From assembly GCA_963817895.1 (NCBI GenBank), contig CAWFQB010000005.1, positions 288,001 to 352,000 of the forward strand: a stretch of 64,000 nt of DNA, in the 5' to 3' direction. The stretch comes from an uncultured Chthonomonadaceae bacterium. GTDB taxonomy: Bacteria > Armatimonadota > Chthonomonadetes > Chthonomonadales > Chthonomonadaceae. The stretch's first letter is position 1. The number at the start of each line of letters is the position of its first letter. Positions 1 to 19,070 of the stretch are shown in pieces. Below the pieces are notes generated by a model. That model was not told where the DNA came from. It ran no database searches and saw nothing but the letters and a program-made list of their open reading frames with translations. A program made the position numbers and the translations under genes.

Positions 1-13
1 TCCTAGCGCTTAC

Positions 14-412
14 ATGGATGCGGGAGCCGACGCCGAGGACGAGATAGAACTGCCGCCCCTCACCATTGCGGACGTGCTGGCGCAGGTGCGTCCCGGTGAG
101 GATTTAACGCAGGCGGCAGAGCGTAATGAACTGAACGCGCTTCGCAGCCGCGCGGCGGGATCGGAGCCGATCCCACAGGATTTGAGCGGGCGCGGCGTTC
201 GGCAGTTCCTCGCAAGTCTGGGTATTACGATGAGTCGGCGAGTGGAAAACGCTTTTCGCAATACCGCCATTCTGCTGGCGCAGGGTCGGCAGCAGAACAT
301 GGCGCAATTGGCCGCCACGCGCCGCCAGCGTTCCGCCTCCCAACATTCCACTTCCAGACCTCCGGTATCGGAACGTTCTGATTCTGACAAGGATTCTGTT
401 TCGGAACAATAG
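14..412 (+). CDS. Hypothetical protein, probably 5'-truncated by the window edge; first visible gene of the IrrE-NurA-HerA-SbcDC operon
   Basis: The frame is open from the window start. The stop lies 11 nt before the next ATG. No recognisable domain. Confidence 0.6.
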   Translation: MDAGADAEDEIELPPLTIADVLAQVRPGEDLTQAAERNELNALRSRAAGSEPIPQDLSGRGVRQFLASLGITMSRRVENAFRNTAILLAQGRQQNMAQLAATRRQRSASQHSTSRPPVSERSDSDKDSVSEQ

Positions 413-423
413 GATTTTCGCCC

Positions 424-1152
424 ATGACCACCGCCCTGTTCCCGAAGAACATTGACACCGTCATAGCCCACTTGTACACACAATCGGACGCCCCGTTGCC
501 GACGCTTCAGCGTCCCATTGTGTCGCTATTTGATTTGACGCGCGCCTATAGTCTGGTCTGCCGGGAACTGCCTGGCCTGACCAGCCATATCGCGTCCGAA
601 TTTCTCCTGCGGCGCAACGGACTTGTCTCGCCTTTGAAAGAAGCCAATCACATTCCGCTCGCCGGTTTTCTCTATGCCACAACCGATTTCGGTAGCATTT
701 TCGTGGAAAAGAACGATCCCGTGGTACGGCGACGCTTTTCGGTTGCGCATGAAATCGGACACTATCTGCTGCATTTTCTGCCTCTACTGAAGGCATCGGC
801 GAACGGAAGCGGAAGCGTTGCCGATTGGATTACGGATGCTTTTGTCGGCGTGGACAAAGAAGATGAGGCGCGTGCCACATCGAACGGGCATATTGCCGTA
901 ACGCTGTCGGAAGGAGTTCCAATTCCACAGACGCCATTTGAGCAGATGGAGCAGGAGGCCAATGAGTTTGCCGCCCGCCTGCTAATGCCTGCCGATTTGG
1001 TCACGTCCCTGGCGACACAATACGGCGTCCGCTATCGTAATGAGGAGCTGTCTTGGCGGCTTGCCACGGAAATGCTGGTCAGCCATGCTGCCATGCAATG
1101 GCGGCTGCGTCATCTCAACATTTTTGCAAGTCTGAACGCCGACCGGAATTGA
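424..1152 (+). CDS. ImmA/IrrE family Zn-metallo-endopeptidase (peptidase M78-like)
   Basis: RRRFSVAHEIGH (HExxH) and EQEANEFAARLLMP motifs. Confidence 0.92.
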   Translation: MTTALFPKNIDTVIAHLYTQSDAPLPTLQRPIVSLFDLTRAYSLVCRELPGLTSHIASEFLLRRNGLVSPLKEANHIPLAGFLYATTDFGSIFVEKNDPVVRRRFSVAHEIGHYLLHFLPLLKASANGSGSVADWITDAFVGVDKEDEARATSNGHIAVTLSEGVPIPQTPFEQMEQEANEFAARLLMPADLVTSLATQYGVRYRNEELSWRLATEMLVSHAAMQWRLRHLNIFASLNADRN

Positions 1153-1193
1153 CAAGAGCGTCTATTTGCCCCAAATACCGCACGGAGAGCCGA

Positions 1194-2252
1194 ATGGGAC
1201 TGGAATTTTTACGAAACTACGGTGCGCAACGCGTCCAAAATTATCCCGGCTTGCCGACGATGATCGGCGATATGCAGGCCGCCAATGACGAGGACAAACA
1301 GCGCATTAACCTGGATTACGAAGTGGCGCGCGATCAGTGGCAGGCGCAAAACACGGCGGGTGTGGCGGCAGATACGACTGCTTTCACCGAGGGACCATGG
1401 TGTCCGCGATGCTTCATAGACGGTAAGGATGTGGGGCGCACAGTAGCCTGGCTGCGCAGTAAGGAGGGCTATCCTGTTCCCGTGCGCCTGGCGGAAATCG
1501 GCGCGCTGGCGATGCAAAACGAGAACGGCTGTCTGCGGCGCGATTTTCATTGCGTAGAGCGTGTCATTTCCATGATGGCGGATGCGTTTCCCTGGGAGGA
1601 TGTGGAAGCGTTCGCAATGGAATTGCAGGCCGCGGGGTTTCGGCTGCTGATATGTGGGGCACCTCCGAAGGATGCCAATCCCTACGATTTCGAGATTATG
1701 CGCCAGGCCACATACAGCCGTACTATGAGTGAGATGATCCGGCTGGAACGGGTAGCCCTCAACCAGTGCTGTAATGCGCCGACTGTAATTGATGGCCGAT
1801 TGGAAACGCGCGCCGGGGCATTCGCGCACCATCAGGATGCGGTTGTCGGATTGATAAAGACTCACTCGCGCAACTTTCTGCATACGCAGGGCTGGAACAC
1901 GCTTTATGATTTGACCCCTGGCCAGCGTACGCCTGTATTTCAGTTGGAAGATGATAGCGTCAGTGTGGTAACGTGGTATCTGCGCATAGACGGCGGGCGC
2001 AGCGACATGCCGAACTGGGGCATTGTGCGCGTAGAAGCGCCGCGCCTGTTGTTCGAGCAACAGATGGGGCAGGACTGGAACTATATCAATCAACTCTCGC
2101 GCCTGCTGTGCCGCTACCGTACGCGCGATGCCGGGTATGGGCGGTCCGCCGTTACTATTCACCCCATTCAGCGGGCCGAAGAAATGCTCGGTTCCCTTTT
2201 CACCAATGCGGACACATTAATCAGCCGCTTTTATCATCTCACGAATCTGTAA
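1194..2252 (+). CDS. nurA: NurA-like nuclease (RNase H fold)
   Basis: Motifs FIDG, VIDGRL, VGLIKTH, TWYLRI and C-terminal PIQRAEEML. Directly upstream of a HerA ATPase. ATG 1194 follows GGAG. Confidence 0.75.
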   Translation: MGLEFLRNYGAQRVQNYPGLPTMIGDMQAANDEDKQRINLDYEVARDQWQAQNTAGVAADTTAFTEGPWCPRCFIDGKDVGRTVAWLRSKEGYPVPVRLAEIGALAMQNENGCLRRDFHCVERVISMMADAFPWEDVEAFAMELQAAGFRLLICGAPPKDANPYDFEIMRQATYSRTMSEMIRLERVALNQCCNAPTVIDGRLETRAGAFAHHQDAVVGLIKTHSRNFLHTQGWNTLYDLTPGQRTPVFQLEDDSVSVVTWYLRIDGGRSDMPNWGIVRVEAPRLLFEQQMGQDWNYINQLSRLLCRYRTRDAGYGRSAVTIHPIQRAEEMLGSLFTNADTLISRFYHLTNL

Positions 2253-2402
2253 ACTGTTTGCTGCAATTTTGTCTCCGGTCTGTAACAAAAGCAGGAACTG
2301 AAGGGAATATCTCGCATCGGGCGCGGAATTTGCTGTTTGAAGCGAACGCTCCAAAATATCCTCGTCTTAACAAAAGCGCGAACAAGAAAGAAGCGGGTCA
2401 CT

Positions 2403-4319
2403 ATGGCAGAGATTTTGAATGCAGAGATTCTGGAAGCAATCGGAAATGGAACGGCTGTTGTGGAAACCAGCGCAGGCAGTCCGGCGTCAGCGGATTTCGC
2501 GACAGAGTTGAAATCGCGTGGGCCGGTGTCGCGGCCGGATGGGCGATTGTGCGTGGGGCGCGTAGGAGCGCCGCCAACACAGGAAGCCACCAGCGAAGAA
2601 TTTTGTTTCTGGGTTCCGCCGGATGCGTTGGTGGAAAAGTCGCAAATCGTGACGTGCATGAGCAGGGTTGCGGGGCAGAAGTACACGTACTATGCCATTG
2701 TGGATGAGGTGCATCGGTGCAGCCGCAAGCGCAGCATGGGACATGAGGTGGATGAGGCCGACAACGACCTGGATTACGAGCCGCCGTTTGAAAGCGAAGG
2801 TTACACGTATGCCACCGCCACTATCCTGCGCGTGGAGCCGATGGCGCTCACCCCGCCCCGCGAACGCAGCGACGTGATGATGGGCAATGAAGCGGATGTG
2901 GAAAAAGCCTACAGCGCGGATGAAATCGCTCCCGGCAGCCGCCTGGCCGTTGGACTGGTCAAAAATGGAGGCAATCGCATAGCGGGACCGGGCTATATAG
3001 ATACAGACTACCTGCTCGGTGCAAATGGGGGCCACCTCAACGTCAACGGCGCGGCGGGACGGGGAACCAAATCCAGTTTTCTATTGTGGATCAACTGGCT
3101 GCTTTTGGGAGAAGCGCGGCGGCAGGAGGCCGCAAACCCTACGCGCAAAAACCGGCTTCGCATCGTGCCCATCATTCTCAACGTCAAAAACTTCGACTTG
3201 TTCTACATTGATCGCCGCAGCGTGAAGTACGAACCGGACAAACATCTGCCGGACTGGCAGGCGATGGGGTATGATGACCCTCAACCGTTTACCGACGCGG
3301 TTTATTACGCCGCGCAGCAACGGGATACGAACCAGGCCGTTCCCACCGGGCGCGCGAGTGGGGTTATGCCTTACAGCTGGAGCCTCAAAGATGTTATCGT
3401 CGAAGGGCTGATGGAATACTTGTTCGCCGAAGCGGACGCGAACGATGTCAACTTCAGCGCCCTGATTCTGGACATTCAGGACTGGCTCACACGAACGCAA
3501 CCCCGTAATGCGGGCAGCGTTGCGTTTACCCTGCGTTCCGACGGACCTCAGACATTTCGCGCACTGCTGGATTGGGTAAACGCGCAGGCGGCAGCAAAGG
3601 ACGAGACTCGCGTTGTGAGTTCGCACCATACAGCAACGTGGAAGAAACTGGCGAGGCGTCTCATCAAATTGATCTATGAATGTCAGGGGGCGTTGCGCAC
3701 CGAAGACAACAATGGCAATCCGCTGGACGTGCGGCGAAGCGATACCAGCGCCCCCATTGTGGTAGACCTGGCCGCGCTTGCTGGCGAGTCTATGATGCAG
3801 CGTTTTGTCGTGGCGACAATCTTCAAGCAACTTGTCGCCGAGCGCACGGGCGCGAAAGCCATCGGGGGCTTGATCTACCTGGTGACGCTGGATGAACTCA
3901 ACCGCTTTGCGCCGAAAGGCGCGAAAGACCCCATTACACAGTTGATTGAAAAAGTGGCGGCGGAAATGCGTTCTCAGGGCGTAATATTGCTGGGTGCGCA
4001 GCAGCAGGCTTCACGAGTCAGTGAGCGCGTCATTGAAAATGCGGGCATACGGGTGCTTGGCAAAACCGGCGTCATTGAACTTGCTGCAACCGCATGGCGC
4101 GGCCTGTCCGACAGCGCCCGGAGCAAGGCGGATCGCCTGCCGCCGGATGAAAAATTGATTTTACAGGACAATTTTCGTGAGCCGATGCACGTCAAAGTTC
4201 CGTTTCCCGTCTGGGCTATGAATCCGCAGGAGGCGCTTTCCGCCCCGCCCTCCTCCCTGTCCACACCCGGCGCATCGTCAGTAGAGACGGACGATCTGGA
4301 CGGCCTGCTAGCGGATTGA
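2403..4319 (+). CDS. herA: HerA/FtsK-superfamily ATPase with N-terminal HAS-barrel-like region
   Basis: HLNVNGAAGRGTKSS (variant Walker A), LVTLDELNRFAP (Walker B), MRSQGVILLGAQQ (Arg finger/Gln motif). Start could extend to TTG 2337. Confidence 0.85.
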   Translation: MAEILNAEILEAIGNGTAVVETSAGSPASADFATELKSRGPVSRPDGRLCVGRVGAPPTQEATSEEFCFWVPPDALVEKSQIVTCMSRVAGQKYTYYAIVDEVHRCSRKRSMGHEVDEADNDLDYEPPFESEGYTYATATILRVEPMALTPPRERSDVMMGNEADVEKAYSADEIAPGSRLAVGLVKNGGNRIAGPGYIDTDYLLGANGGHLNVNGAAGRGTKSSFLLWINWLLLGEARRQEAANPTRKNRLRIVPIILNVKNFDLFYIDRRSVKYEPDKHLPDWQAMGYDDPQPFTDAVYYAAQQRDTNQAVPTGRASGVMPYSWSLKDVIVEGLMEYLFAEADANDVNFSALILDIQDWLTRTQPRNAGSVAFTLRSDGPQTFRALLDWVNAQAAAKDETRVVSSHHTATWKKLARRLIKLIYECQGALRTEDNNGNPLDVRRSDTSAPIVVDLAALAGESMMQRFVVATIFKQLVAERTGAKAIGGLIYLVTLDELNRFAPKGAKDPITQLIEKVAAEMRSQGVILLGAQQQASRVSERVIENAGIRVLGKTGVIELAATAWRGLSDSARSKADRLPPDEKLILQDNFREPMHVKVPFPVWAMNPQEALSAPPSSLSTPGASSVETDDLDGLLAD

Positions 4320-4332
4320 AAGGAAAACGCTG

Positions 4333-5667
4333 TTGAAACTGCTGCATACCGGCGACTGGCATATCAATGCCCGCCTGGGAAATCGCTCCCGATCGGAGGA
4401 AATTTTTACGGCGATGGGGGAAATCGCCGACTTGCTGGAAACGCACAGGGTTGACGTGATGATTGTGGCAGGCGACCTGTTTCGGGACCCGCACATGGAT
4501 AAACGGGAAACCGGCGAAGTCGTCGGTCGTATCAAATCCTTGTTTGGACGATTTCTGGAGCGCGGCGGAACTATTGTCGCCATCACGGGCAACCACGATA
4601 GCGAAATCGCCTGCCGGACATTGCGTGACACGCTCGCCCTTGCGCCCGCAAAGCCGACCCCACTTACCAGCATCCTGCCATCAGGCAGGCTATATATCGA
4701 AACCGAACCCAAGCGTATTCGCCTTGCCGATTCGGAGGGCGGAATTGTGCAATTTATCCTGATGCCGTATCCGAATTCTATGTATTTACGCGGCGAAACC
4801 ACACACGCGGTGGGCAATGCCGCGCGCAACCGCGCCATTTATGAGAAATATCAGCAGGCGGTCACGCGCCTGACCGAGACGCCCGCTTTTGACGACACGT
4901 TACCCGCCGTGTTCGTCAGTCACATTCATGTGCGGGGCGTCAATGCCAATGCCCGTACCGCCTACGAGGTGAGCGAAGCCGAAGACGTTATCTTTGAACC
5001 GGGCGATATTCCCACACACTTCACATACGTGGCTTACGGACATATTCACGACGCCCGACAAAAGCCCACAGCCAATGCAGAGCATGTTCGCTATTGCGGC
5101 AGCATCGTGGCTTTGGACGCGGGTGAGCGCGACGATGTGAAAAGCGTCGTCGTGTTCGACATTACGGGCGGCAAAGCCGTTAACATCAAGGAAATTCCGC
5201 TTTCCGCGCCCAAATTCATTCATGAGATCACGCTCAACGCGGAAACAAGGGATCATGAACGCCTGGCGGAACTGTTCCCTCACATCGCGCCCGACCGCGA
5301 TCTGGTCAAGTACAATGTGGTTTATACGCCGGGCGTACATAACCTTGCAGACATCGAGCGCGCCGTTCAGGATACGTTTCCCGGCTGGTATGCGCGCAAG
5401 TTGGCTCCTTCCCAGGAGGCCATAACAATATCAACTCCGCTGCCGCCCCGTCGCAATGTAGAAGCAAACATCCGCGAGTATATCACGGCGCATTACGACG
5501 CAGGCATTACAAACGAGAAGAACGAGGTTAAACGTCTTGCCGCCGAGGCCGAGCGTGATGCGCTTTTGGAGTTGGCGATGGAGTTGTGGCATGAATGCAG
5601 CGCCGAAGCGGTAGTCTGCGGGGTAGAAACGGCAATCGGGGAAACGGCAAGAGAGGTGGCGCAATGA
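4333..5667 (+). CDS. sbcD: SbcD/Mre11 metallophosphoesterase nuclease
   Basis: HTGDWH, AGDLF, ITGNHD, SH and YVAYGHIH motifs. AAGGA RBS before the TTG start. Confidence 0.93.
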   Translation: MKLLHTGDWHINARLGNRSRSEEIFTAMGEIADLLETHRVDVMIVAGDLFRDPHMDKRETGEVVGRIKSLFGRFLERGGTIVAITGNHDSEIACRTLRDTLALAPAKPTPLTSILPSGRLYIETEPKRIRLADSEGGIVQFILMPYPNSMYLRGETTHAVGNAARNRAIYEKYQQAVTRLTETPAFDDTLPAVFVSHIHVRGVNANARTAYEVSEAEDVIFEPGDIPTHFTYVAYGHIHDARQKPTANAEHVRYCGSIVALDAGERDDVKSVVVFDITGGKAVNIKEIPLSAPKFIHEITLNAETRDHERLAELFPHIAPDRDLVKYNVVYTPGVHNLADIERAVQDTFPGWYARKLAPSQEAITISTPLPPRRNVEANIREYITAHYDAGITNEKNEVKRLAAEAERDALLELAMELWHECSAEAVVCGVETAIGETAREVAQ

Positions 5668-8525
5668 TTCCAACTCGTATTCGGCTTCAAGGGTTTCTCA
5701 GCTATGGCAGCAACGCGCAGACGCTGGAATTCGGCGATTCGCCGATGTGGCTGCTTGCCGGCCCTAACGGCGCGGGCAAATCTTCGGTTTTCGACGCCAT
5801 TCAGTTCGCCCTGTATGGCTCCCACCGGGACGGCAAAACAGGCTTCGACAATCTGATTCATAAAGGGCAGGATCGGTTCGAAATTGAGGTTGAATTCATC
5901 GCCAATGACCGAACGTTTTGCGTAAGGCGTTCGCGCGACAACCGAGACAACCAAACCTGTGAAGTATTCGAGGTGACAGGCGAGGGCCCGAACCGCAGCC
6001 TGAAAGCCCTTCCCGAAGTGGGCCGCGCCACGCTGACGCAATGGGTGCAGTCCACGCTGGGCATGACCGAAGAGACGTTTGCCGCCTCTACGCTGCTCAA
6101 ACAGGGTGGCAGCGACGCGCTGATCGAGGCCGATAAAAACGAGCGATTCAAGATGTTGAGCGAACTGGTGAATTTGTCGGATTACGACCGGCTGTACAGC
6201 AAGGCAGACGCGCTGCACAAACACTGGAAGGGAAGGCAGGAAAGCGCGAAACGGCGCATGGACGCGATTTTCGCGAACGGAGATAGCGGGTTGAAGGACG
6301 CGCGGCAGGAAAGCGCGGCGCAGGAGCGGCAGGCGCAAAAACAGCAGCGTATTCTGGATGCCTCCAAACGGCTGTTAAGTCGTCTGGGCGCGCGCAAAGT
6401 CCATGCGCAGAATCTGGTCAAACTCGTCCGCGAGGAGCAGGAACTGCAAACAGCCATCAAGGAAGCCGCGCCCACTCTACAACAGGAAGCGCAGATTCAG
6501 GCAGACTCGGCGCGTTGGAATGGCCTGCGAACCGCGCTGCCCATCCTGCGAGAACTGCGCAGTGGACTGGAAGCGCGGGCGCGCTGCGAAGCCGACCTTG
6601 CCGCCAATGCGCCCAACCAGGATTCCTGGCAGACAGGGCTTGCCAGCCACTACCACTTGCCGGAGGAAACGGACGGACTGCTGACCATACTGCTTACAGC
6701 AGTAGAAGCGGAGGAATCCGCGCTGACCGCCACGCAAACCGCCCTGCCCTGGCTGCGGATGTTCGCGGAAGCGCGCGCGGAAGGGCAACTGGCGAAGCAG
6801 GTGCATGATCTGCAAAACGCTCGTTCCAGACAGATCAGCCGCATTAGAACCCTTGTGGAAGCGAAACTACAGGGCGCGGATCAGGCGAAAACCGATGCTG
6901 AACGACTGGCGCAGGAACAGCGCGACGCCTGGCGGAACGCGCAAATGCAGGTAAAAACGGCGCAGGAACGCGCCCATCAAATGGACGCGCTCGACGGTTC
7001 ACCGGCCTGCGACATCTGCGGACAGGAACTATCCCCCCTTCATCTGGCTACAGAGCGCGAACGCCGAACAAGCGCGCAGCAGATGGCGGAAGCGGCATTG
7101 CTGGAAGCGGAGTGCGCGTATCGCGCCGCTCAGGAAGCGCAGCAGCAGGCGCAGACACGCTGCCGTCTCTGGCAGGGGCGGCAGCAAATGCTCGATACAA
7201 AGTCCGGTCAGTTGGAAGCAGACAAGCGCGCTACTAACAGCGATTACAAACATGCCCGCGCCAACGCGCAAAACGCGCTGAATGCCCTCGCCGGTCTCAG
7301 CGATAACTACGCGGCGGCGATTGGAATTGCCGCGCAAGCTGTTCTCGACAACAGCCTGGAATGGCTGGACTCTACCTATCCCACCGATAAGGATTGCGCC
7401 CACTTGCTGCGGCAGTGCGCCCGGCTGCCGCAAACCCGAACCATTCTGGAAGCGGTACGCGGCCTGTCACAAAGTGACAGCAAAATCAACCAGAATCTGT
7501 GTCTGCTTACAGACGAGTGGCGGCAGGAAGTGATGGAACTGGACGCAAACCGCCTGAAAACCAGGATCATCGGGTGGGACAGGGAAACAGCGGAACTTGC
7601 GGGCGCGGATACCCGGTTGGCGTTGCTGACTACAGCGAAAGATAAGCAGGTGGCCCGCCAGTTGCGTCTTGAGCGTATCGGCGTGGATAGACAGGAGATT
7701 CTTTATCAGGCCGAATGTGACGCGGACGCGCTCGATCTTGAAAGCATTGAATGTCGGATGCGTTACGCTGATGCCCGACAGATTCAGGCGCAAACGACGC
7801 GCGAAAACGCGCTGAAGCGGCAGCAAACGCTGGAGGAGAACAGCCTCGCGTACTGCCGGGAGCGCGAGGATTGGAAATCCGCCGAATTAAAGGCCGCGCG
7901 CCACAAGAAACTGGCCGAACTGATCGGGCCTGTCGGCCTACAGCGCGAACTGCTGTGGGAAGCGGAAAGAGGCATTCTGGCCCATGCCAACGAAACTCTG
8001 GAAACGCTTTCCGACGGACAACTCCGTCTGCAACTGCGCAGCGAGATGAACGAGCAAACCGCGTCGGATGGCGTGAAGTTCAAAAAAATCGCCAAATCTC
8101 GCTTGAAGGAAGCCTTCGACGTGGTGTGCTGCAACAGTGAAATTGGCGGGCATGGCATCGGACTGGCGTTTCTGAGCGGCAGCCAGAAGTTTCGCGTTGC
8201 CGTCAGTTTGGCTCTGGGCATAGGGCAGTATTTTGGGCGTGAGGGACAGGGAGCGCAAGCGGTTATCATTGACGAGGGGTTTGGCAGCCTGGACAAGCAG
8301 AACCGGGACGTGATGATTGCCGAACTTCAAAAACTAAGCGGCAAACTCAAGCGCATCATTGTTGTCTCACACCAGGAGGAGTTTCGAGACGCCTTCGAAT
8401 ATCGCTACGACATTCGCCTGGATAAGCATAATCACGCCTCTATAACCCAAATGGTGACGCCGCTGCATCCGGCGGTGGACGAAAGCGATACAAACGCGAT
8501 GGCAGAAAATGAGCGCAAAATTTAA
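5664..8525 (+). CDS. sbcC: SbcC/Rad50 SMC-family ATPase
   Basis: GPNGAGKSS Walker A, long coiled coil with CDIC zinc hook (~7008-7019), LSGSQ signature, IIDEGFGSLD Walker B/D-loop, VSH. ATGA overlap with sbcD. Confidence 0.95.
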   Translation: MIPTRIRLQGFLSYGSNAQTLEFGDSPMWLLAGPNGAGKSSVFDAIQFALYGSHRDGKTGFDNLIHKGQDRFEIEVEFIANDRTFCVRRSRDNRDNQTCEVFEVTGEGPNRSLKALPEVGRATLTQWVQSTLGMTEETFAASTLLKQGGSDALIEADKNERFKMLSELVNLSDYDRLYSKADALHKHWKGRQESAKRRMDAIFANGDSGLKDARQESAAQERQAQKQQRILDASKRLLSRLGARKVHAQNLVKLVREEQELQTAIKEAAPTLQQEAQIQADSARWNGLRTALPILRELRSGLEARARCEADLAANAPNQDSWQTGLASHYHLPEETDGLLTILLTAVEAEESALTATQTALPWLRMFAEARAEGQLAKQVHDLQNARSRQISRIRTLVEAKLQGADQAKTDAERLAQEQRDAWRNAQMQVKTAQERAHQMDALDGSPACDICGQELSPLHLATERERRTSAQQMAEAALLEAECAYRAAQEAQQQAQTRCRLWQGRQQMLDTKSGQLEADKRATNSDYKHARANAQNALNALAGLSDNYAAAIGIAAQAVLDNSLEWLDSTYPTDKDCAHLLRQCARLPQTRTILEAVRGLSQSDSKINQNLCLLTDEWRQEVMELDANRLKTRIIGWDRETAELAGADTRLALLTTAKDKQVARQLRLERIGVDRQEILYQAECDADALDLESIECRMRYADARQIQAQTTRENALKRQQTLEENSLAYCREREDWKSAELKAARHKKLAELIGPVGLQRELLWEAERGILAHANETLETLSDGQLRLQLRSEMNEQTASDGVKFKKIAKSRLKEAFDVVCCNSEIGGHGIGLAFLSGSQKFRVAVSLALGIGQYFGREGQGAQAVIIDEGFGSLDKQNRDVMIAELQKLSGKLKRIIVVSHQEEFRDAFEYRYDIRLDKHNHASITQMVTPLHPAVDESDTNAMAENERKI

Positions 8526-8555: not shown

Positions 8556-9488
8556 TTACCTCGGCACGGGTATTTTCTCCAAGCCTTCTTCAATGATATG
8601 GGAGGATTGGACGCCGCCGTAACGGGCTTTGGTGTCGAGCATCAGGCGGTGGGCGAGGACGGGAACGGCGAGGGCGCGAACGTCTTCGGGCAGAACGTAA
8701 TCGCGGCCTTCGAGCAGGGCGCGGGCTTGACTCGTCCGGTACAGGGCGAGCGAACCGCGTGGGCTTGCGCTCAGGCGCAGGCGGGGATCGGTTCGCGTCG
8801 CTTCCACAAGGCGCAACAGGTACTCCGCCACGCTGCGCTCGACCCGCACCCGCTTCACCTCCTGCTGCGCCTGAAGGATTTCCTGACAGGTGACAATGGG
8901 AACCAGCCGGTCGAACGGATCGGTTTCGTTGTGGCTGAACAGGATTTCCAGTTCGTCCATAAACGCGGGATAACCCAATGTAACGCGAACGGCAAACCGA
9001 TCCAACTGCGCTTCGGGCAGGGGGTACGTGCCGTGAAAGTCGGTCGGGTTCTGCGTGGCAATCACGAAAAACGGTTGGGGCAAATCGCGCCGCCGCCCCT
9101 CAATCGTAATCTGGTTTTCGCTCATCACTTCCAGAAGGGCCGATTGGGTGCGCGGGCTGGTGCGGTTGATCTCATCGGCCAGCAGCACATTGGCGAATAC
9201 CGGCCCCTCTCGAAACTCGAACACGCCCTCTTTCGGACTGTAAAAACTGCTGCCCGTAATGTCGGCGGGCAACAAATCGGGCGTAAACTGAACGCGCCGA
9301 AATATGCCGTCAATGGAACGCGCCAGCGATTTGGCGAGCGTGGTTTTGCCGGTTCCCGGCACGTCTTCAAGCAGCACATGCCCGCCCGCGAGCAGGGAAA
9401 TCAGCGTCAGGCGGATGCTGTCGGGTTTGCCGCGTATCACGCTTTCAAGATTGTTTTGAATGTTCTGGATGGGTTCGGAAAGCAGCAA
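8556..9488 (-). CDS. moxR: MoxR family AAA+ ATPase
   Basis: LLEDVPGTGKT, RVQFTPDLLPADITG, LLADEINR, ATQNP and LPEAQLDRF. Confidence 0.96.
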   Translation of the reverse strand: MLLSEPIQNIQNNLESVIRGKPDSIRLTLISLLAGGHVLLEDVPGTGKTTLAKSLARSIDGIFRRVQFTPDLLPADITGSSFYSPKEGVFEFREGPVFANVLLADEINRTSPRTQSALLEVMSENQITIEGRRRDLPQPFFVIATQNPTDFHGTYPLPEAQLDRFAVRVTLGYPAFMDELEILFSHNETDPFDRLVPIVTCQEILQAQQEVKRVRVERSVAEYLLRLVEATRTDPRLRLSASPRGSLALYRTSQARALLEGRDYVLPEDVRALAVPVLAHRLMLDTKARYGGVQSSHIIEEGLEKIPVPR

Positions 9489-9548
9489 GTATCACCTTTT
9501 CAACAACGGACGATAAATAAAGCCAAACGGTGGATGAAGCAAACAGGT

Positions 9549-9803
9549 CTACATATCTATCCAGTAGCCCAATCCGGCCTGCCGGATAGCGTCCTCGCGT
9601 ATTTTGTAGGCCAGGTTCGGTTCCACGCGCTTTTTCTCCAGTATCTCCACCGCCTCGGCTTCAAACAGTTCGGTGTCGCAGGCGGGGTCGGCCAGCATCT
9701 CGTCGTACTCCTCCTGCGTCAGATGATAAAACACGCCCGCGCCGGATTGGGCGCTCCGCCCTCCGCCAACCGCCGCTTTCCCCGATTCTCTGATTTTTTT
9801 CAT
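9549..9803 (-). CDS. Small hypothetical protein (84 aa)
   Basis: AAGGAG RBS before ATG 9803. Plausible helical acidic sequence with no known motif. Confidence 0.5.
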   Translation of the reverse strand: MKKIRESGKAAVGGGRSAQSGAGVFYHLTQEEYDEMLADPACDTELFEAEAVEILEKKRVEPNLAYKIREDAIRQAGLGYWIDM

Positions 9804-9860
9804 TGTCCCATTCTCCTTCTTTGTTCTGAGATTGCCCCCCGCGTCTCCGCCTGTCCCCAA

Positions 9861-9921
9861 CCCCTTCCCCCAGGTTGCGTATTTCAAAGCGAAGCAGAAA
9901 TACGCAACCTGGGGGAAGGGG
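9861..9921. repeat. Perfect 25-bp inverted repeat with 11-nt loop (REP-like hairpin)
   Basis: CCCCTTCCCCCAGGTTGCGTATTTC at 9861-9885 and its exact reverse complement at 9897-9921. Confidence 0.9.
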
Positions 9922-10003
9922 GAGCTACTTGTTTTATCCGGTAAGGCGAACGTAGTTCACAGGGGTTGTTCGGAGTTAATATCCAATATCTCGTATCTCG
10001 TAT

Positions 10004-12142
10004 CTACTCTTCCCTTTTCCCTTTTCCCTTTTCCCTCACCCCCTGCTCCAACCGGCTTAACTGCGCGTTGAGGCTTGCGAGGGCCGGCACATCGGGAAGG
10101 GGGCCGAAGCGGGAAGCGTTGTAGGCGCGAATGAAAGCGGCCAGGGCTTCCGCATCCAATCCGGCGACCTGCGCGGCGGCCTGCCCGGATGCGCCGGTTA
10201 CATATTCCAGCCAGGTGAATTCAGGCGGGCAGACCAACCCGACATTATGGCACAAACGCTCGAAACGCGCCGCCATTCGCGCCAGTTCCTGAGCGGGGGC
10301 GGCATACGCGAACTCCGTCATGCGAGTGGGACGGACGCGCCGCCGTTGCCGCTGCCATTGCCATGCGAGAACCAGAAACGCGATTACGCCTGCCACAATC
10401 CCGGCGCGTACTGCCTGCGGCCCCTTCAGCCAGTCCAGCAATCGCCCCCACGTATCCGAAAACCATTCCCGCAGCCGCGTCCAGGGCGGAATTGGGTACT
10501 CGTCTTCCAGTTTGTCGGGGCGGCCATTGCCGGGTGTGGCGTCTACGGTCAGCCAGCCCTGTCCGTCAATCCAACACTCGGCCCAGGCATGGGCGTCCCG
10601 CTGCCGAATGATGGTCGCGCCCCTGCCATCGCCCTCGTGCGCGTAGTATCCGATAACGTAGCGCGTGGGAACATTCACGCAACGCAGCAGGATAGTGGCC
10701 GAAGACGCGAAGTATTCGCAGTGCGCCGCGCCCTTATGCAGCAGAAACTCTGAAACAGGGTCCGCCTGTCGGGGCAAATGGTACGTCAGGCTGTATTTAT
10801 GGTTCAGTATCAGATAGCGCTCGACGGCATCGGCGCGGGCGCGCGGGTCGGCGATATTCCCGGCGATTTCACGCGCCAGTTGACGCACGCCCGGCTCGAT
10901 ACTATCCGAAACTGTCAACAGTTTTTGGCGGTACGCGGCATCCGGGGGCGCGGCAAACGGCCCCTGATACAGTTCTTCCGAACCAATGTCCAGACCGTAG
11001 GATGTCAGGCCGCGCTTGTCGGTTTGCAGCGGCCCACCTTCGCCCGGCCTCCATGTCACGCTTTCCGTGTCCAACGGTTCGAAAGAATGGGTCGAAAGCG
11101 GTTCGCACAACAGGCCGAGATTGAAGGCCAGCCGCTCGACAACTACATGCGCGGGCGCGGAAACCCCGCTATTCCTGCCGGACGCGCTCATTTGCGCTGC
11201 CGGCAGAGCCGTAGCGTCTACGGGCGTTCGCGAGGCGAGAGATGGCTCCCACGCGCCAAGTTTGTACTCGGAAAACGCCATCGCGCGCCAGTGCGTGGGA
11301 GCATCCCCGCCTGTAATGCGCAATACCCGTTCGGGCGTCCCCTTCAGATCATCGGTGTTGCCCAAACGCGGCGTCGTGGATAATCCAACCCGCGGTGACG
11401 ACATGCGCTCGTTCAGAAAACGTATTCCCCATGCGGTCAAACCTACCCGGTAGTAGCGAAACGTATAATGCAGCCCCGTGCCGAGGGCCAGCGCGGTTCC
11501 CATCGCCACGCCGAACACGATTTGCCGCGTCAGAGAAACATCTGTTTTTCCGGCGCGAACAGGGGGCGCTTCCACAATGCCGATGCCGAACAGCGTGGTT
11601 TCGGGAGGGACGGGCAGGCGATACTGGCGGATGGACAGCACAATCAGCAGCATGTACAGGGGCGCGCAAAACGCGATATAGGGCAGATGCGCCGCGTCTT
11701 CCGTAATGTCGCAGGCGATAAGAAACACCAGCCCGGACAGCAGAATCACCACCACGCCGCTGCCGCCCCCCTCCGGTCGCTGCTTCCACAATTGCAATAC
11801 GAGTTCCGCCGCCAGCAGTTCCCCCGCCCAGTTGAACCGGAAATCGAAAAAGGTGTTTGCCAGATTGTCAGGGCGCATCGCGTCCAGAGTGAGAATCACG
11901 CCAAAGATGACAAGGCGCAGCATCCACAACGCGCTGTTGTTTGTCAGGCGGGCGGAAGAACGCTGCGAGGCCAGCAGTCCGACAAGCAGAAGCGGCACCA
12001 CAAAAGACTGCCCCTCGCTGATCCACAGCGTAACAAACGCAAGCAGTGTCGCCGCCAGCGCCGTCCAGTGCAGGCGGAGAAGAGGTTGGTGGTTGGTGGC
12101 TGGTAGTTGGTGACGGGTGGTTGGTGATTGGTGGCTGGTCAC
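10004..12142 (-). CDS. Membrane transglutaminase-like protein (DUF3488/TgpA-type)
   Basis: Multiple N-terminal TM helices, GAAHCEYFAS (Cys), DAHAWAECW (His) and VDATP (Asp). The GTG 12142 start after GAGGAG is inferred. Confidence 0.9.
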   Translation of the reverse strand: MTSHQSPTTRHQLPATNHQPLLRLHWTALAATLLAFVTLWISEGQSFVVPLLLVGLLASQRSSARLTNNSALWMLRLVIFGVILTLDAMRPDNLANTFFDFRFNWAGELLAAELVLQLWKQRPEGGGSGVVVILLSGLVFLIACDITEDAAHLPYIAFCAPLYMLLIVLSIRQYRLPVPPETTLFGIGIVEAPPVRAGKTDVSLTRQIVFGVAMGTALALGTGLHYTFRYYRVGLTAWGIRFLNERMSSPRVGLSTTPRLGNTDDLKGTPERVLRITGGDAPTHWRAMAFSEYKLGAWEPSLASRTPVDATALPAAQMSASGRNSGVSAPAHVVVERLAFNLGLLCEPLSTHSFEPLDTESVTWRPGEGGPLQTDKRGLTSYGLDIGSEELYQGPFAAPPDAAYRQKLLTVSDSIEPGVRQLAREIAGNIADPRARADAVERYLILNHKYSLTYHLPRQADPVSEFLLHKGAAHCEYFASSATILLRCVNVPTRYVIGYYAHEGDGRGATIIRQRDAHAWAECWIDGQGWLTVDATPGNGRPDKLEDEYPIPPWTRLREWFSDTWGRLLDWLKGPQAVRAGIVAGVIAFLVLAWQWQRQRRRVRPTRMTEFAYAAPAQELARMAARFERLCHNVGLVCPPEFTWLEYVTGASGQAAAQVAGLDAEALAAFIRAYNASRFGPLPDVPALASLNAQLSRLEQGVREKGKGKREE

Positions 12143-12177
12143 TGTCTCCTCTTCTCCTCTTCTCCTTTTCTCCTTGT

Positions 12178-13629
12178 CTAAATTTCTTCCACGCCGGACA
12201 GAAAATCGCTTTTGGACAGGACCCGGATGCCGCCGGGAAGGGCGTCGGCGTCCGGGGCGAGCGTACAGGCCGTGTCGCGGACAACCAGAACGCGAACCGC
12301 AGTTCCCTCGCGCCTTAAACGGTCTACGAACGCGCGGCGGGTTTCGTCCCAATCCAGAAACAGGCAGACAATCGTGGTGATTTGCGCGAGATTGGCGGCG
12401 ATTTCTGGTTCCAGCGTGGCGAACGGCTCGTCGGGGCTGCCCTCCACGCAGGCGAGAATATCCAGAATCTGATCCAGATACGCGAGACTGCGTCCGGCTG
12501 TGAGATGGTACAGGTTCGGTCCGGCGGCGAACAGGTCTACGATGTAATCGGAACGCGCCATGAAATCGCTGACCGCTGCGGCCAGGCTGACGGCTCGCTC
12601 GAAGTTCTCCTCCTGCGCCAGCAACGCCTTCACGCTCAACAGTTTGCCATTGATGCGGTCGGGCGTATACGTGTCCATGACCACGCCCACGCGCAGGAAA
12701 TACTCTTCGCGGTATTCGCGCACAATGGGCAGGTTCAGCCGCGCGGTCGCCCGCCAGTCAATGTCGCGCACGTTGTCGCCCTCACGGTATTCGCGGTTGC
12801 CCAGATACTCGAACGACTTGCCCAGACTGGACGCGAGCGCGACGCCGCCGGGCTGATAGCGCAGGCTGGTGGGGATTTGCAGGCGCGTCAGGGGCGTAAA
12901 GGCGGGATACACAAGCGCGTCATGGCGCTGCGCATACGTTCGGAAGGCGCGTATCAGGCCGAACGGAAAGTCGCACTCCACCCGAAAGCCGCGCCACGTA
13001 TACAGGCCGCGCCGGTCACAGCGGATGCCGATACGAACCCGCGTTTTCTGGCCCCGCGCAAGAGGCGGCAGGCGCAGTCCGTCTTCGGGAACCGAATCAA
13101 GGGCGCGGGGCAGGCAGTGCGGAATCAGGGTCATAGTCGCGCCAAGCAGGTTGCGATGCTGGCGGATTTCCACGTCAACGGGCAGCGTTTCGCCCGCCCG
13201 GATGCGCTCGGCATGGTGGGCAACAAGAGCCACGCGGGGCTTGAACAGCAGGGCGCAAACCAGAGCCGCGAACCACACGCCGAAAGCATAGGTGAACGGC
13301 ACGTAGATTTGCAGGTCGAGGGAGTTGGAGCCAATGGTCATGCACACGAGGGAAAGCGTGAGGAACCAGCGACTGGCCTGCGTGAAGCGATACGTGAAGA
13401 AGCGCCACGCCCACCGCGAGATAGCGCCGCGAAACAGGGGATGCGTGGAAATGTCTTTGGCGCGCGAAGCGGACGGCCACCCCGCCGCCAGTATCTGCTG
13501 GTTGGTGAGCGGGCGGCGGCGAACGGGCCGGGGAATGGCGGTTGTGACGGGCGGCAGGGACATGGATAAGTTGGAAAGCGCGCGCCGCGAATCGGGCGCG
13601 GCGTTCCTCACAGGCAGAACGGCAGCCAA
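12178..13629 (-). CDS. DUF58 domain protein (MoxR-associated, vWA-like)
   Basis: EYLGNREYREGDNVRDIDWRATAR and FERAVSLAAAV motifs. Typical MoxR/TGase context. Alternative start ATG 13563. Confidence 0.9.
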   Translation of the reverse strand: MAAVLPVRNAAPDSRRALSNLSMSLPPVTTAIPRPVRRRPLTNQQILAAGWPSASRAKDISTHPLFRGAISRWAWRFFTYRFTQASRWFLTLSLVCMTIGSNSLDLQIYVPFTYAFGVWFAALVCALLFKPRVALVAHHAERIRAGETLPVDVEIRQHRNLLGATMTLIPHCLPRALDSVPEDGLRLPPLARGQKTRVRIGIRCDRRGLYTWRGFRVECDFPFGLIRAFRTYAQRHDALVYPAFTPLTRLQIPTSLRYQPGGVALASSLGKSFEYLGNREYREGDNVRDIDWRATARLNLPIVREYREEYFLRVGVVMDTYTPDRINGKLLSVKALLAQEENFERAVSLAAAVSDFMARSDYIVDLFAAGPNLYHLTAGRSLAYLDQILDILACVEGSPDEPFATLEPEIAANLAQITTIVCLFLDWDETRRAFVDRLRREGTAVRVLVVRDTACTLAPDADALPGGIRVLSKSDFLSGVEEI

Positions 13630-13921
13630 TTCGGTTGCGGTGCAGATGTCGCGAACAGCGCGTCCTTTGCCTCCCCAGTTCAGGCAAATGTAACACCTGT
13701 GTTGACGGAAAAGGTTCTAACACCACATACGCGCTGCACCGCGAAAACGTTGCTTGCTACGCCGAGAGTTCCTATCTGGTGGTTATTGACGTTGCCTGAA
13801 CAGTGTTCAAAGGAGGAATTCCGGTTTCTGCGGTGAATTGATAGTGCGAAACTGTGCGCAGTTTCGCTGGTCGCATTCTGCTGTGGCCTCGGCGACACCA
13901 AGCAAAGGAATGAACCTGACC

Positions 13922-16900
13922 ATGCCCAAAATTTTCGATAACATTGACCTTCCCCTGCTGCCTGCCCTGCAAGACACCCTCGCCGTTTCTGAGCGCGCCG
14001 ATTTTTGCGTGGGCTATTTTAACCTGCGCGGCTGGAAGCGGCTGGACGGCTATCGTGGAAGAGTGGGCGGGTGGGGAGGGGCATTGCTGCCGCCTGCTGG
14101 TGGGGATGCAGCGCGCTCCCGACGACGAATTGAAAGCGGCTGATGTCCATCGATGGAAGCCGATGGCGACATGGACAACCAGACCGCCATTCGGATGAAA
14201 CGGAAGCTGGCCGAAGATTTCAGAACGCAGTTGACGGTCGGCGTTCCTACCAATGAAGATGAAGCGGGGCTAAGGCGGCTGGCGGCGCAGATCAAGGCGA
14301 AAAAGGTCGTGGTCAAGCTGTATCTGCGCCATACGCTTCATGCCAAACTCTACCTGATGCACCGCCCTGCGGATCCCGTCAACCCTATCATTGGCTACCT
14401 GGGCAGCAGCAACCTGACGCTTTCCGGCTTGCAGCATCAGGGCGAATTGAATGTGGACGTGCTGGACCACGACGCCGCGCACAAAACTGGCGAAATGGTT
14501 TGGGGAGCGTTGGGAAGACCGCTGGTGTCTGGACATTTCCAATGAACTGGTGCAGGTGATTGAGGAATCGTGGGCGCGGGAAATTCCCATTCCCCCTACC
14601 ATATCTACGTGAAAATGGCTTACCATCTGTCGCAGGAGGCGCGGGCGGGGCTGGCGGAGTTTTCCATTCCCAAAATCTTCGGCAACAAACTTTTCGATTA
14701 CCAGGCGGCGGCGGTGAAGATCGCCGCCCGGCATTTGAACAAGCGGGGCGGCGTCCTGATCGGCGATGTGGTGGGATTGGGCAAAACGCTGATGGCGACC
14801 GCGCTCGCCCGGATGATGGAAGAGCAGGGCATGGAAACGCTGATCCTCTGCCCCAAAAACCTGGTGGCGATGTGGGAGGACTACCGCACGAAGTATCGAC
14901 TGCGGCGCTCAAAGTGCTGTCGGTAACGCAGGCGGTCAAAGCGGCTGCCCGCCGACTGCGCCAAGCCCCTGCCGTCGTTATCGCCTTGTCTTGATTGACG
15001 AAAGCCATAACCTGCGCAACCGGGAAGGCAAGACGTACCGGGCGATTCGGGAGTACATCGAGCGCAACGAAAGCAAAGTGATTCTGCTGACGGCCACGCC
15101 GTACAATAAAACCTATCTCGATCTGTCCAACCAACTGCGCCTGTTCGTGCCGGAAGAGCGCGACCTGGGCATCCGCCCGGAAGCCCTGCTGCGGCAAATG
15201 GGCGAAGTGGAGTTCGTCACGGCGGCATCAGGCGGGCATCCGGACACTGGCCGCCTTCGAGAAGAGCGACTATCCCGACGATTGGCGCGAGCTGATGCGG
15301 CTGTACATGGTGCGCCGAACCCGCTCGTTTATCATGGACAATTACGCCCGAACGGATCTGGCGACACAGCGCAAGTACCTGCTGTTCGACAATGGCGAAC
15401 GCTCTTATTTCCCCGACCGCGCGCCCCGAACCGTGCAAGTTCGCCCTGGACGCGCAATACGAGGCGTTGTACGCGCAGGAGGTTGTGGATACCATCAACG
15501 GCCTGTGCCTGCCCCGCTATGGATTGGGCAATTACGACAACATTCCAAGCCGGACAAGCCGCCCACAGCCGGCGGAGACGGCCGCGCTGAAAGATCTGTC
15601 GCGGGCGGGCAAGCGGTTGATGGGGTTTTGCCGCACCAACCTGTTCAAGCGGCTGGAATCGAGCGGGTACGCCTTTCTGCTGTCCGTCGAGCGGCATATT
15701 CTGCGCAACTATATTTTCCTGCATGCCATCGAGAACAACCTGCCGCTGCCCATCGGGACGCAGGGGGCCGACCTGCTGGATACGGACATGAGCGACGACG
15801 ACGCGGAGGACACGGCGACGGGCGAAGGGATGTTTGCCTCAGAAGAGGACGACGAGGCGGCGGAGACAGGCGACGGAAATTAAAACGCAGGCATTGCGGA
15901 CCGAATGAGGATTTCCGCAAGCGAGCGGCGCAGGTGTATGCGCTGTATGCGGGGGCCGTACAAAAAACGGTTCAAGTGGCTGTCCTCGCGCCTGTTCCAA
16001 AAACAACTGGCGGACGATCTGCAAGTCGGACGGCGCCGCGCTGATACAGATTTTGGGCAAATGCGCGCAGTGGGACGCCAACCAGGACGCTAAAATGCTG
16101 GCGCTGCGGCAACTGCTCGCCAAAGATCGGCCCAACGACAAAGTGCTGGTGTTCACGCAGTTTGCGGACACGGCGCAGTATCTGTACAAAGAGATGGCAA
16201 GCGCGGGGAATTCGAGCATGTTGCCGTGGCAACGGGCGGAAGCGCGGACCCCACGGAACTGGCGTGGCGGTTCAGCCCGCGCAGCAACGGCAAAATGGCG
16301 GGAAGCGAAGGCGGCGGGGGAACTGCGCGTCTTGATCGCCACCGATGTTCTGTCGGAAGGCCAGAACTTGCAGGATGCGTTTGTGGTCGTCAATTACGAT
16401 CTGCCCTGGGCGATCATCCGCCTGATACAGCGCGCGGGCCGCGTGGATCGTATCGGGCAGAAGGCGGAAGAGATTTTGTGCTACTCGTTCCTGCCGGCAA
16501 AGGGCGTGGAAAAGATCATCAAACTGCGCAGCCGCGTTCGGCAGCGGCTGGCCGAAAACGCCGAAGTGGTCGGCACGGACGAGGCGTTTTTTGAGGACGA
16601 CAAAAGGGGGCGCAAAATCCTCGATCTGTACCATGAAAAGGCGGGCGTTCTGGACGGGGATGAGGACGGCGAAGTGGATCTGGCGTCGAAAGCGTTCCAG
16701 ATCTGGAAGAACGCGATCGAAGCCGATCCCGGCCTGCAAAAGACGATCACGGGGATGCCGCGATGTGGTGTATTCCGCCAAAGCGCACACGCCAACACTG
16801 CGGACAGCCGGAAGGCGCGCTGGTGTTTCTGCGGACGGGCGAAGGGAACGACGCGCTGGCGTGGATTGACAAGGAACGGCGAGAGCGTCACCGAGTCGCA

Positions 16901-17340
16901 GTACGCGATTTTGCGGGCCGCCGAGTGCGTCGCCCGATACGCCTGCCGTGCCGCGCCTGAAAACGCACCATGAACTGGTGGCGAAGGGCGTGGAGCATAT
17001 CGTGCGCGAGGAGCGTAATGTGGGCGGGCAGCTGGGCCGTCCGTCCGGGGCGCGTTTCAAGACCTATGAGCGCCTGAAACGTTATGCGTACGCAGGTACG
17101 CGGACGGCCTGTTCGACTACGCCGGAACTGCACCGGGCCATCGAGGAGATTTACAAGTACCCCCTGACCCAAACGGCCACGGACCGCATCAACAGCCATC
17201 TGCGCACCGATGTGACCGACGACATGCTGGCGCAACTGGTCATTCTGCTGCGGGACGAAAACCGGCTGTGCGTGATCACGGAAGAGCAAAGAGCGGAAGA
17301 GCCGCGCATCATCTGTTCCCTCGGATTGGTAAATCAATAG
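13922..17340 (+). pseudogene. PLD-nuclease + SNF2-type helicase fusion (restriction-like), split by about 10 frameshifts (real decay or sequencing error)
   Basis: Successive frames give MPKIFDNID...[15 protein letters not shown] and GSSNLT (PLD HxK), DVVGLGKT, IDESHN, LLTATP, DVLSEGQNL and QRAGRVDRIGQ. Confidence 0.85.
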
Positions 17341-17356
17341 ATGGGATTTCGCGTAC

Positions 17357-17854
17357 ATGGATTTAGCGCAACAAAAAGAAAAGTTCAGTGATGCCTATCT
17401 ACAGGCTGTTGCCGCCGTTGCAGGCTACGGCCTTGCCAAGCCTAATCCCGATACAGACAGCGTGGATTGGGTTATTTCGGCGAGGGGAGTGGGTGACACG
17501 CTTCGCCGTCCGCGTTTGGAAGTGCAGTTAAAATGCACCGCTCAGAATATTGTTCGGGAAACTCATCTTCATTTTCCACTGGAAATCAAGAACTACAACG
17601 ATCTGCGACATCCGAACCCGCTCACGCCCTGTATTTTGATTGTAGTGACAGTTCCCGACAACATTGAAGAATGGATTGCTCACTCCGAGGCGGAACTTTC
17701 TCTACGGCGTTGCGGCTATTGGGTATCCTTATGCGGCGAAGCGGAAGTTTCCAACAACTCGAAAGTGACTGTTCGCGTGCCGCGTATCCAGATGTTCACG
17801 CCGCAGGCATTGCAAGCCATGATGCGGCGTATCAACAGCGAGGGAAGATTATGA
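17357..17854 (+). CDS. DUF4365 domain protein (PD-(D/E)xK-like fold)
   Basis: KEKFS.AYL.AVAA.AGY, DTDSVD, LEVQLKCT and LRRCGYWVSL pattern. Confidence 0.8.
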   Translation: MDLAQQKEKFSDAYLQAVAAVAGYGLAKPNPDTDSVDWVISARGVGDTLRRPRLEVQLKCTAQNIVRETHLHFPLEIKNYNDLRHPNPLTPCILIVVTVPDNIEEWIAHSEAELSLRRCGYWVSLCGEAEVSNNSKVTVRVPRIQMFTPQALQAMMRRINSEGRL

Positions 17855-19041: not shown

Positions 19042-19070
19042 ATTTTATCCGAGTTGAGGGCTAATTGAGC

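Follow-up and report, generated by a model that had tools for sequence, protein, structure and literature searches.

The archaeal NurA-HerA-Mre11-Rad50 operon encodes four enzymes that act in the resection of DNA ends, and a NurA-HerA pair is known from Deinococcus radiodurans (PDB 7F6D; PMC9960219). HerA-family motors combined with an enzyme also make up the Sir2-HerA and DUF4297-HerA anti-phage systems. Peptidases of the M78 family operate the CapP-CapH, IrrE(PprI)-DdrO and ImmA-ImmR switches, in which a regulator is placed ahead of effector genes. A protease, an anti-sigma protein and a sigma factor resembling the extracytoplasmic function (ECF) type form the CalpL-CalpT-CalpS trio of type III CRISPR systems and the TPR-CHAT/Csx30/CASP-sigma trio, and in Myxococcus xanthus an ECF pair, DdvS-DdvA, controls a defence island (PMC11506125). 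We analysed a stretch of 64,000 nucleotides (nt) from an uncultured Chthonomonadaceae bacterium of the phylum Armatimonadota (assembly GCA_963817895.1, contig CAWFQB010000005.1, positions 288,001 to 352,000 of the forward strand), referred to below as the window. The start of the window and the DNA just upstream of it carry a seven-gene cassette coding, in this order, for an ECF sigma factor, a small protein, an M78 zinc peptidase, NurA, HerA, SbcD (Mre11) and SbcC (Rad50). Comparison with homologous loci indicates that the cassette is real, conserved and apparently undescribed. Literature searches, whose reach did not extend to subscription journals or bioRxiv supplements, brought up neither an M78 peptidase joined to an ECF/anti-sigma pair nor the seven-gene unit. 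In a survey of ECF groups (PMC7826278), neither IrrE nor M78 appears in the main text, and none of IrrE, M78, HerA, NurA and SbcC appears in the available part of the supplement.

The six open reading frames (ORFs) within the window are co-directional on the + strand and are separated by 11, 41, 150 (84 from TTG 2337), 13 and -4 nt, the values that the original prediction, made from the sequence alone, had given and that the ORF coordinates reproduce. That prediction had the peptidase heading the operon, a place that belongs to the ECF sigma gene located upstream of the window (L001:7129-7738). The ORF at 14-412 proved not to be a separate gene of 132 residues; it is the 3' part of a 225-residue ORF that starts about 265 nt before the window (L001:7735) and fills positions 1-412 (+). 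This ORF encodes the small protein, a predicted soluble anti-sigma factor, and is followed by the genes for the peptidase (424-1152, +, 242 residues), NurA (1194-2252, +, 352 residues), HerA (2403-4319, +, 638 residues), SbcD (4333-5667, +, 444 residues) and SbcC (5664-8525, +, 953 residues).

Conservation was surveyed with a HerA alignment. It gave 136 matches in genomes and 244 in metagenomes, and the 80 best of each set were examined. All seven genes were present in 46 of the 57 genome loci and 42 of the 45 metagenome loci having both flanks. The genes for the sigma factor, small protein, peptidase and NurA occurred together in 51/63 genome and 50/53 metagenome loci with at least 3.6 kb upstream, and sbcD and sbcC lay 3' of herA in 63 of 67 genome loci having flank sequence. 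The linkage of the peptidase, for which a neighbourhood survey had been proposed, held: the peptidase gene is upstream of herA in 56/65 genome and 55/56 metagenome loci with at least 2.3 kb of upstream sequence. Searches with the small protein led to the same arrangement, with the sigma gene before and peptidase-nurA after it in all eight full-length matches in other genomes of the host phylum and in eight of eight in a cyanobacterial family, several of these genomes being shared with the HerA set. The carriers span eight phylum labels and include the cultured Thermogemmatispora, Calothrix PCC 7103 and Zavarzinella.

The distribution of the cassette is that of an accessory element. Within the host phylum, the small protein was found in 10 genomes out of 301, and within the host family in none of the 17 others; around three carriers, its full-length form occurs in 22/121, 4/121 and 7/201 sampled genomes, these carriers included. 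Two congeners, 91% and 97% complete, yielded no match to the cassette HerA. In the congener G261, the upstream genes are syntenic to the very edge of the cassette, beyond which other genes follow; at the corresponding site (L191:1670-3711) there are two overlapping genes (376 and 304 residues) without a Pfam or PADLOC match. The cassette, being patchy in phylum, family and congeners, is not a core housekeeping locus shared by kin. The host has a separate sbcCD elsewhere, which excludes the cassette as its only copy, together with LexA and an AddA-like gene (below cut-off). With the peptidase conserved upstream and a second sbcCD in the genome, the two refutations that the original prediction had foreseen, a non-adjacent peptidase and a sole sbcCD, therefore do not apply. 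Of 72,556 plasmid records, two encode the small protein together with a close HerA, and the one examined further has all seven genes; no relative of HerA was found in viral contigs.

In a quick tree of 41 HerA rows, from which four frameshifted loci, incomplete loci and metagenome loci were left out, the HerA of the window groups with rows from Chloroflexota and Acidobacteriota and not with a five-row Armatimonadota clade. The tree suggests, and does not prove, horizontal transfer of the cassette. Two genomes of the host phylum have the cassette split over two sites. At four loci (L061, L063, L075 and L077), the regulator trio and nurA score like those of the main group. Scores for herA, sbcD and sbcC are low there, and the herA rows fall into a divergent clade of the tree, a pattern that suggests an exchange of modules.

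The sigma factor consists of regions 2 and 4 only, over about 200 residues, as defines the ECF type. Against the sigma profile, the present copy aligns in one frame for positions 1-186 and in another for 179-200; the gene therefore changes frame, in its last helix, and is fused in frame to the next ORF. The absence of frameshifts noted by the original prediction is thus accurate for the six genes in the window and does not extend to the sigma gene upstream. A true sigma/anti-sigma fusion was rejected, since among the examined loci only the present one and a frameshift-rich one (L048) are fused. The break is likely an assembly error because other genes of the assembly are also split, namely, the housekeeping sbcC and a locus at 13.9-22.4 kb.

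The small protein belongs to no consistent Pfam family across 62 members and is unnamed or "hypothetical" in 120 listed homologues. Its model consists of two helical parts (pLDDT 88, pTM 0.53). A model of the sigma/small-protein complex, built for the pair of another locus (L002), scored 0.79, whereas the best of three controls reached 0.02; among solved complexes, 116 of 157 attain a score of 0.79, and among mismatched pairs, 2 of 215 do so, a calibration only roughly applicable to the alignments used. The runs agreed in at least 80% of the contacts, with a partner pLDDT of at least 69, and placed residues 8-79 of the small protein against sigma regions 2 and 4. Its N-terminal domain also heads longer proteins encoded directly after related sigma factors, in 10 of 10 loci fetched from 58 listed matches, and these proteins have a hydrophobic, membrane-like segment as judged by eye. 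Anti-sigma factors are usually arranged in this way. On the strength of these models and neighbourhoods, we predict that the small protein is a soluble anti-sigma factor that binds the sigma factor through its first 80 residues. It would define an unannotated anti-sigma domain, reused in membrane anti-sigma factors. DdvS-DdvA offers a close parallel for the pair itself, in that the anti-sigma factor binds sigma regions 2 and 4 and defence genes are controlled (PMC11506125); DdvA, however, is a membrane protein with a zinc-bound domain, whereas the cassette protein is soluble, has no conserved Cys in the alignment and is co-encoded with a cytoplasmic peptidase.

Fold searches with the predicted anti-sigma factor show neither a new nor a known fold. 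There was no Foldseek match at E 0.001 or better, and the best hit of a fold search (Z 6.5) consisted of generic helices over residues 1-95 only, the C-terminal half being barely covered. Atlas matches at 0.90-0.94 were to clusters without a name, and one at 0.88 was to an HTH_31 cluster, which gives a lead only. No helix-turn-helix (HTH) family was found by Pfam (62 members) or among PDB sequences, with the C-terminal half barely covered by the fold search. The N-terminal domain, for which Pfam has no family, heads membrane-type proteins after ECF sigma factors in Ktedonobacterales (L232-L241) and is fused to proteins that by eye resemble response regulators or sigma factors in cyanobacteria (L216-L218, L222, L223, L226 and L227).

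The peptidase is a member of the ImmA/IrrE/CapP (M78) family (PF06114, E 1e-14; PADLOC capP, E 2e-18); CapP is its closest counterpart, in the PADLOC models as well as in solved structures. Its HExxH-plus-Glu zinc site (H109, E110, H113 and E176) is invariant in 63 of 63 members, as is R102, seven residues before the first His. Arg is common at this position in the M78 family. The residue corresponds to R90 of CapP and R85 of IrrE, which bind single-stranded DNA (ssDNA) (10.64898/2026.05.16.725639). The HExxH-plus-Glu site, the invariant Arg and the placement of a regulator ahead of effector genes are all shared with CapP-CapH, IrrE(PprI)-DdrO and ImmA-ImmR. The cassette differs from these switches in having no GAF domain, no cysteine switch and no HTH repressor: the switch loop of CapP was not seen, a Cys occurs anywhere in the loop in only 6 of 63 members, and its place is taken by an acidic loop of 21-63 residues (21% acidic, versus 14% overall). 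The likely substrate also differs, as cutting an anti-sigma factor would switch on an activator.

Protein fusions and gene overlaps tie the peptidase to the small protein. Seven proteins among the best 150 library matches (40-53% mutual identity) consist of the whole small protein fused to the whole peptidase, a fusion likewise present at L023 and L180, and the two genes share a 4-nt stop/start overlap in 40 of 62 loci. The anti-sigma factors conserve F174 (61/62), R175 (46/62), A194 (61/62) and R196 (61/62), and 51 of 62 have LAA within six residues up to R196. CapP cuts CapH before an Arg, at F82-R83 (10.64898/2026.05.16.725639), and the cassette protein has both a conserved F-R and a conserved A-x-R; CalpL cuts the anti-sigma factor CalpT in LAAA, exposing a degron (10.1101/2024.05.08.593097), and a buried LAA motif is common to the CalpL trio, itself set in a defence context, and the cassette. 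The cassette protease is of the M78 type, however, rather than SAVED-Lon (CalpL) or CHAT, and has no nucleotide-messenger sensor, a Pfam scan of it returning no SAVED domain; no relation of its anti-sigma factor to CalpT or Csx30 was detected, and the output is a dedicated nuclease-motor set. In its placement the cassette resembles CapP-CapH, and in its logic CalpL-CalpT-CalpS; it belongs to neither. Overall, comparative evidence supports the sigma/anti-sigma/peptidase wiring well, and this wiring is probably correct. Of the protease-gated module postulated in the original prediction, the gate is supported; no HTH repressor was found, and the adjacent partner is instead a predicted anti-sigma factor for an ECF sigma factor.

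A promoter-like motif precedes the sigma genes. TGTAAC is one of the top hexamers upstream of them (24 of 64 regions, versus a mean of 5 and a maximum of 10 in shuffles), and the motif TGTAAC-N18-GAAT scored at least 10 bits in 39 of 63 sigma upstream regions, against 0/63 inside herA and 3/63 on the reverse strand. The matrix was trained without the host genome, and regions were left out one at a time for scoring; its seed pattern came from inspection of the same sites, and coding DNA served as the herA-internal control. In the host genome, the top-ranking of 35 matches of at least 15 bits lies before the sigma gene (contig positions 287034-287061, upstream of the window), and the fourth, a second predicted copy, lies between nurA and herA at window positions 2281-2309 (+); sites similar to the latter occur at the nurA-herA junction in 4 of 65 loci. 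In two genomes with a detached herA-sbcD-sbcC block (G273 and G033), both pieces carry TGTCACA-N17-GAAA; these are two of five matches per genome to a pattern drawn from the same sites, with one and zero matches for the reversed controls. We predict from these alignments that the motif is the private promoter of the cassette sigma factor. A genome-wide regulon was sought in the host and none was seen because a looser pattern was not enriched at any spacing (41 matches at N18, 29-46 at other spacings). Scans for sigma-70 promoters and terminators stayed at chance level.

The four enzymes form one co-directional run with intact catalytic motifs, equivalent to the archaeal-type set, and the motifs claimed in the original prediction were found in these enzymes as in the peptidase. 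Neither NurA nor HerA has a Pfam match. Searched on its own, NurA gave no hit; its single-sequence fold reached a pLDDT of only 35, and its family was assigned instead by profile search: a profile of 63 homologues matches Deinococcus NurA (7F6D_H, E 2e-9), and 1ZUP is matched at E 7e-4, in keeping with the Deinococcus/Thermotoga type. NurA carries D76-G77 and D200-G201, D76 and G201 being invariant among homologues. HerA is an ATPase/translocase of the Deinococcus type (7F6D_B, E 3e-39) with Walker A at residues 216-224 and Walker B at 493-498, and the Walker A Lys and the Walker B Asp-Glu are invariant in 35 of 35 aligned HerAs; ATG 2403 is its most likely start because the homologues begin there. 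SbcD (TIGR00619, 101 bits, above cut-off) has the motifs DWH, GDLF, GNHD, SHIH and GHIH. SbcC (TIGR00618, E 3e-32, below cut-off) has Walker A at 33-40, the zinc hook CDIC at 449, LSGSQ at 837 and IIDEG at 868. Related gene neighbourhoods may, reportedly, be described in the work of Iyer et al. in 2004 on the FtsK-HerA superfamily.

The cassette contains the same enzyme families as the archaeal operon, in a single run, and its HerA and NurA are of the same type as those of D. radiodurans. It departs from these resection sets in being accessory and patchy, in carrying its own sigma factor, anti-sigma factor and peptidase, and in residing in a host with a second sbcCD. The order hepA(herA)-sbcD-sbcC within a nurA-hepA lineage has been reported in Oceanithermus (PMC5448004). 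According to a 2026 review, bacteria have no stable synteny of the nurA-herA-sbcD-sbcC kind (PMC13748450); the cassette is, to the contrary, a stable bacterial block of this kind. As in Sir2-HerA and DUF4297-HerA, a HerA-family motor is combined with an enzyme in a defence context. The partners here are NurA and SbcCD, however, three regulators are present, and HerA is unmatched by the PADLOC HerA models.

A test for enrichment of defence genes, proposed with the original prediction, was positive: defence genes flank 18 of 57 loci versus 1 of 39 random loci. The neighbour scan covered 175 of 184 called neighbours (at most two per side) at 57 of 59 dereplicated loci, near-duplicates and sbcC fragments having been dropped. 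The defence class (CRISPR-Cas, restriction-modification, Wadjet, BREX, Argonaute, DUF4007 and DUF4011) was assigned by hand from Pfam matches at E 1e-9 or better, and the random loci came from ten genomes, nine of them with cassette genes. Fisher's test gave a P value of 4e-4, or 3e-3 after collapsing linked sets, which kinship still inflates. Of 20 loci followed by a co-directional gene no more than 200 nt away, 10 have a Wadjet, CRISPR-Cas or Argonaute locus starting with that gene. A TGT/QueC/DUF6884 cluster that recurs among the neighbours adjoins seven further loci, in some cases accompanied by another NurA-HerA. This cluster, comprising a divergent TGT, QueC, PTPS and DUF6884, recurs at L004, L005, L011, L018, L023, L061, L082 and L118, the second NurA-HerA being canonical, and looks like a deazaguanine DNA-modification system.

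We favour the reading that the locus is an inducible anti-invader cassette in which the peptidase releases the sigma factor and NurA-HerA with SbcCD degrade DNA ends, a reading with about an even chance of being right. The small soluble protein would keep the ECF sigma factor bound, and release would come when the M78 peptidase, in its presumed role, cuts that protein near the conserved LAA-x-R (or F-R), possibly exposing a ClpXP-type tail. The freed sigma factor would then transcribe the genes of NurA-HerA and SbcCD from the predicted private promoter. These enzymes would likely degrade free DNA ends, presumably those of linear phage or plasmid DNA, and transcription may read through into defence genes downstream. 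The scheme is weakest in its activating signal, for which ssDNA or DNA ends would be a guess. Tentatively, the cassette might even act as a self-amplifying alarm for DNA ends, basal NurA-HerA/SbcCD finding the ends of an invader, the product or the engaged complex activating the GAF-less peptidase, and the unmasking of a degron on the anti-sigma factor, a soluble one of a new family, freeing the sigma factor to raise expression of the cassette and of the defence genes behind it. If so, an M78 peptidase would for the first time have an anti-sigma factor as its target, and the complete archaeal-type set of four resection proteins would for the first time be seen to serve immunity. In any case, the apparently undescribed wiring would join M78 peptidases to ECF/anti-sigma proteolysis, both of them known stress switches. 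It would also open to testing the signal sensed by a GAF-less M78 peptidase and the possible immune role of an archaeal-type resection machine.

A number of observations weigh against the anti-invader reading. On the side of the trigger, the peptidase has no GAF domain, only 2-28 residues separating L231, at an HTH-like end, from the terminus in 63 members, and PprI deprived of its GAF domain does not bind ssDNA or react to it (PMC10904395). The cut is ill-defined: cleavage before the conserved Arg would leave an AA end in 42 of 62 anti-sigma factors and AT in 18 of 62, including the present copy, cleavage one residue earlier would leave AA in 38 of 62, no single register exceeds 42 of 62, and the LAA-x-R stretch is modelled as a helix. 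Resemblance to ECF/anti-sigma complexes already solved may account for part of the complex score. In one locus (L015), the sequence ahead of herA is a poor fit to the motif, and no motif site was found before a detached sbcDC (G306). As to the output, the characterised relatives act in repair, Thermus hepA mutants being UV sensitive (PMC5448004); two cassette HerAs matched none of the PADLOC HerA models, including those of Sir2-HerA and DUF4297-HerA, whereas a neighbouring canonical HerA matched 16 PADLOC families, 14 of them HerA. Moreover, 39 of the 57 loci have no strict defence neighbour, and the loci are not independent. Finally, the present copy may be inactive because its sigma factor is frameshifted.

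Under the same sigma switch, the output could alternatively be an accessory, damage-inducible kit for double-strand-break repair, resecting chromosome ends for homologous recombination and useful in desiccation-prone soil bacteria, with the defence neighbours reflecting shared insertion hotspots; we consider this rather unlikely. It accords with the kinship of the four enzymes to the archaeal resection set and, most closely, to Deinococcus NurA-HerA, with the need for hepA in UV survival of Thermus (PMC5448004) and with the control of a repair regulon by IrrE (PMC10904395). The splitting of the cassette over two sites in two host-phylum genomes, as if domesticated, and the presence of the full small protein in 22 of 121 genomes of one planctomycete family point the same way. 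In the host, however, the motif shows no enrichment by spacing outside the two cassette sites, and no repair gene was recognised among the translated gene starts listed behind the top sites. A LexA match was found in five of five carriers searched, the host has another sbcCD, and the beginning of a defence locus at the very next gene in half of the 20 close co-directional cases also argues against the repair kit.

It is more doubtful that the cassette helps neighbouring immune systems, the sigma factor driving the downstream defence operon and the enzymes supplying fragments for CRISPR spacers or Argonaute guides or finishing DNA cut by Wadjet or restriction enzymes. CRISPR-Cas genes do occur beside 7 of 57 loci, and in two of them cas4/cas1-cas2 begin 58-82 nt past sbcC; Wadjet genes lie 27-199 nt behind the cassette in four loci, and a Piwi gene lies behind it in one. 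Precedents are provided by Sulfolobus Csa3a, which couples CRISPR activation to DNA repair genes (PMC5587795), and by control of a defence island by DdvS/DdvA (PMC11506125). Against this, the partner systems vary by locus, most loci have none, and the next operon in the present window is convergent. That the peptidase has another target or a scaffold role, the sigma factor being freed by a different route, would match the M78 substrates characterised in the work cited here, all of them HTH repressors (PMC10904395; 10.64898/2026.05.16.725639), and is very unlikely in view of the seven natural small-protein/peptidase fusions, the 4-nt overlap between the two genes seen in 40 of 62 loci and the absence of a detectable HTH repressor from the cassette (Pfam, PDB sequences).

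Some observations concern the surroundings of the cassette. In one locus, a pair consisting of an HTH gene and a second M78 peptidase gene directly precedes it (L151:5407-6722), and in another, archease and RtcB do so (L066:5167-7088). In the window, genes for a MoxR-type ATPase, a 461-residue protein and a transglutaminase-like protein converge on sbcC (8556-13629, - strand), and short repeats with many copies genome-wide and in congeners lie at about 9855-10040 and at 12085-12196. Beyond this convergent operon, 5 kb downstream of the cassette, a broken restriction-modification-like locus (13883-22449) contains fragmented PLD/helicase and Eco57I-type methyltransferase genes with many frame breaks; in its middle are an intact DUF4365 gene and a match to PDC-M02B (E 4e-126).

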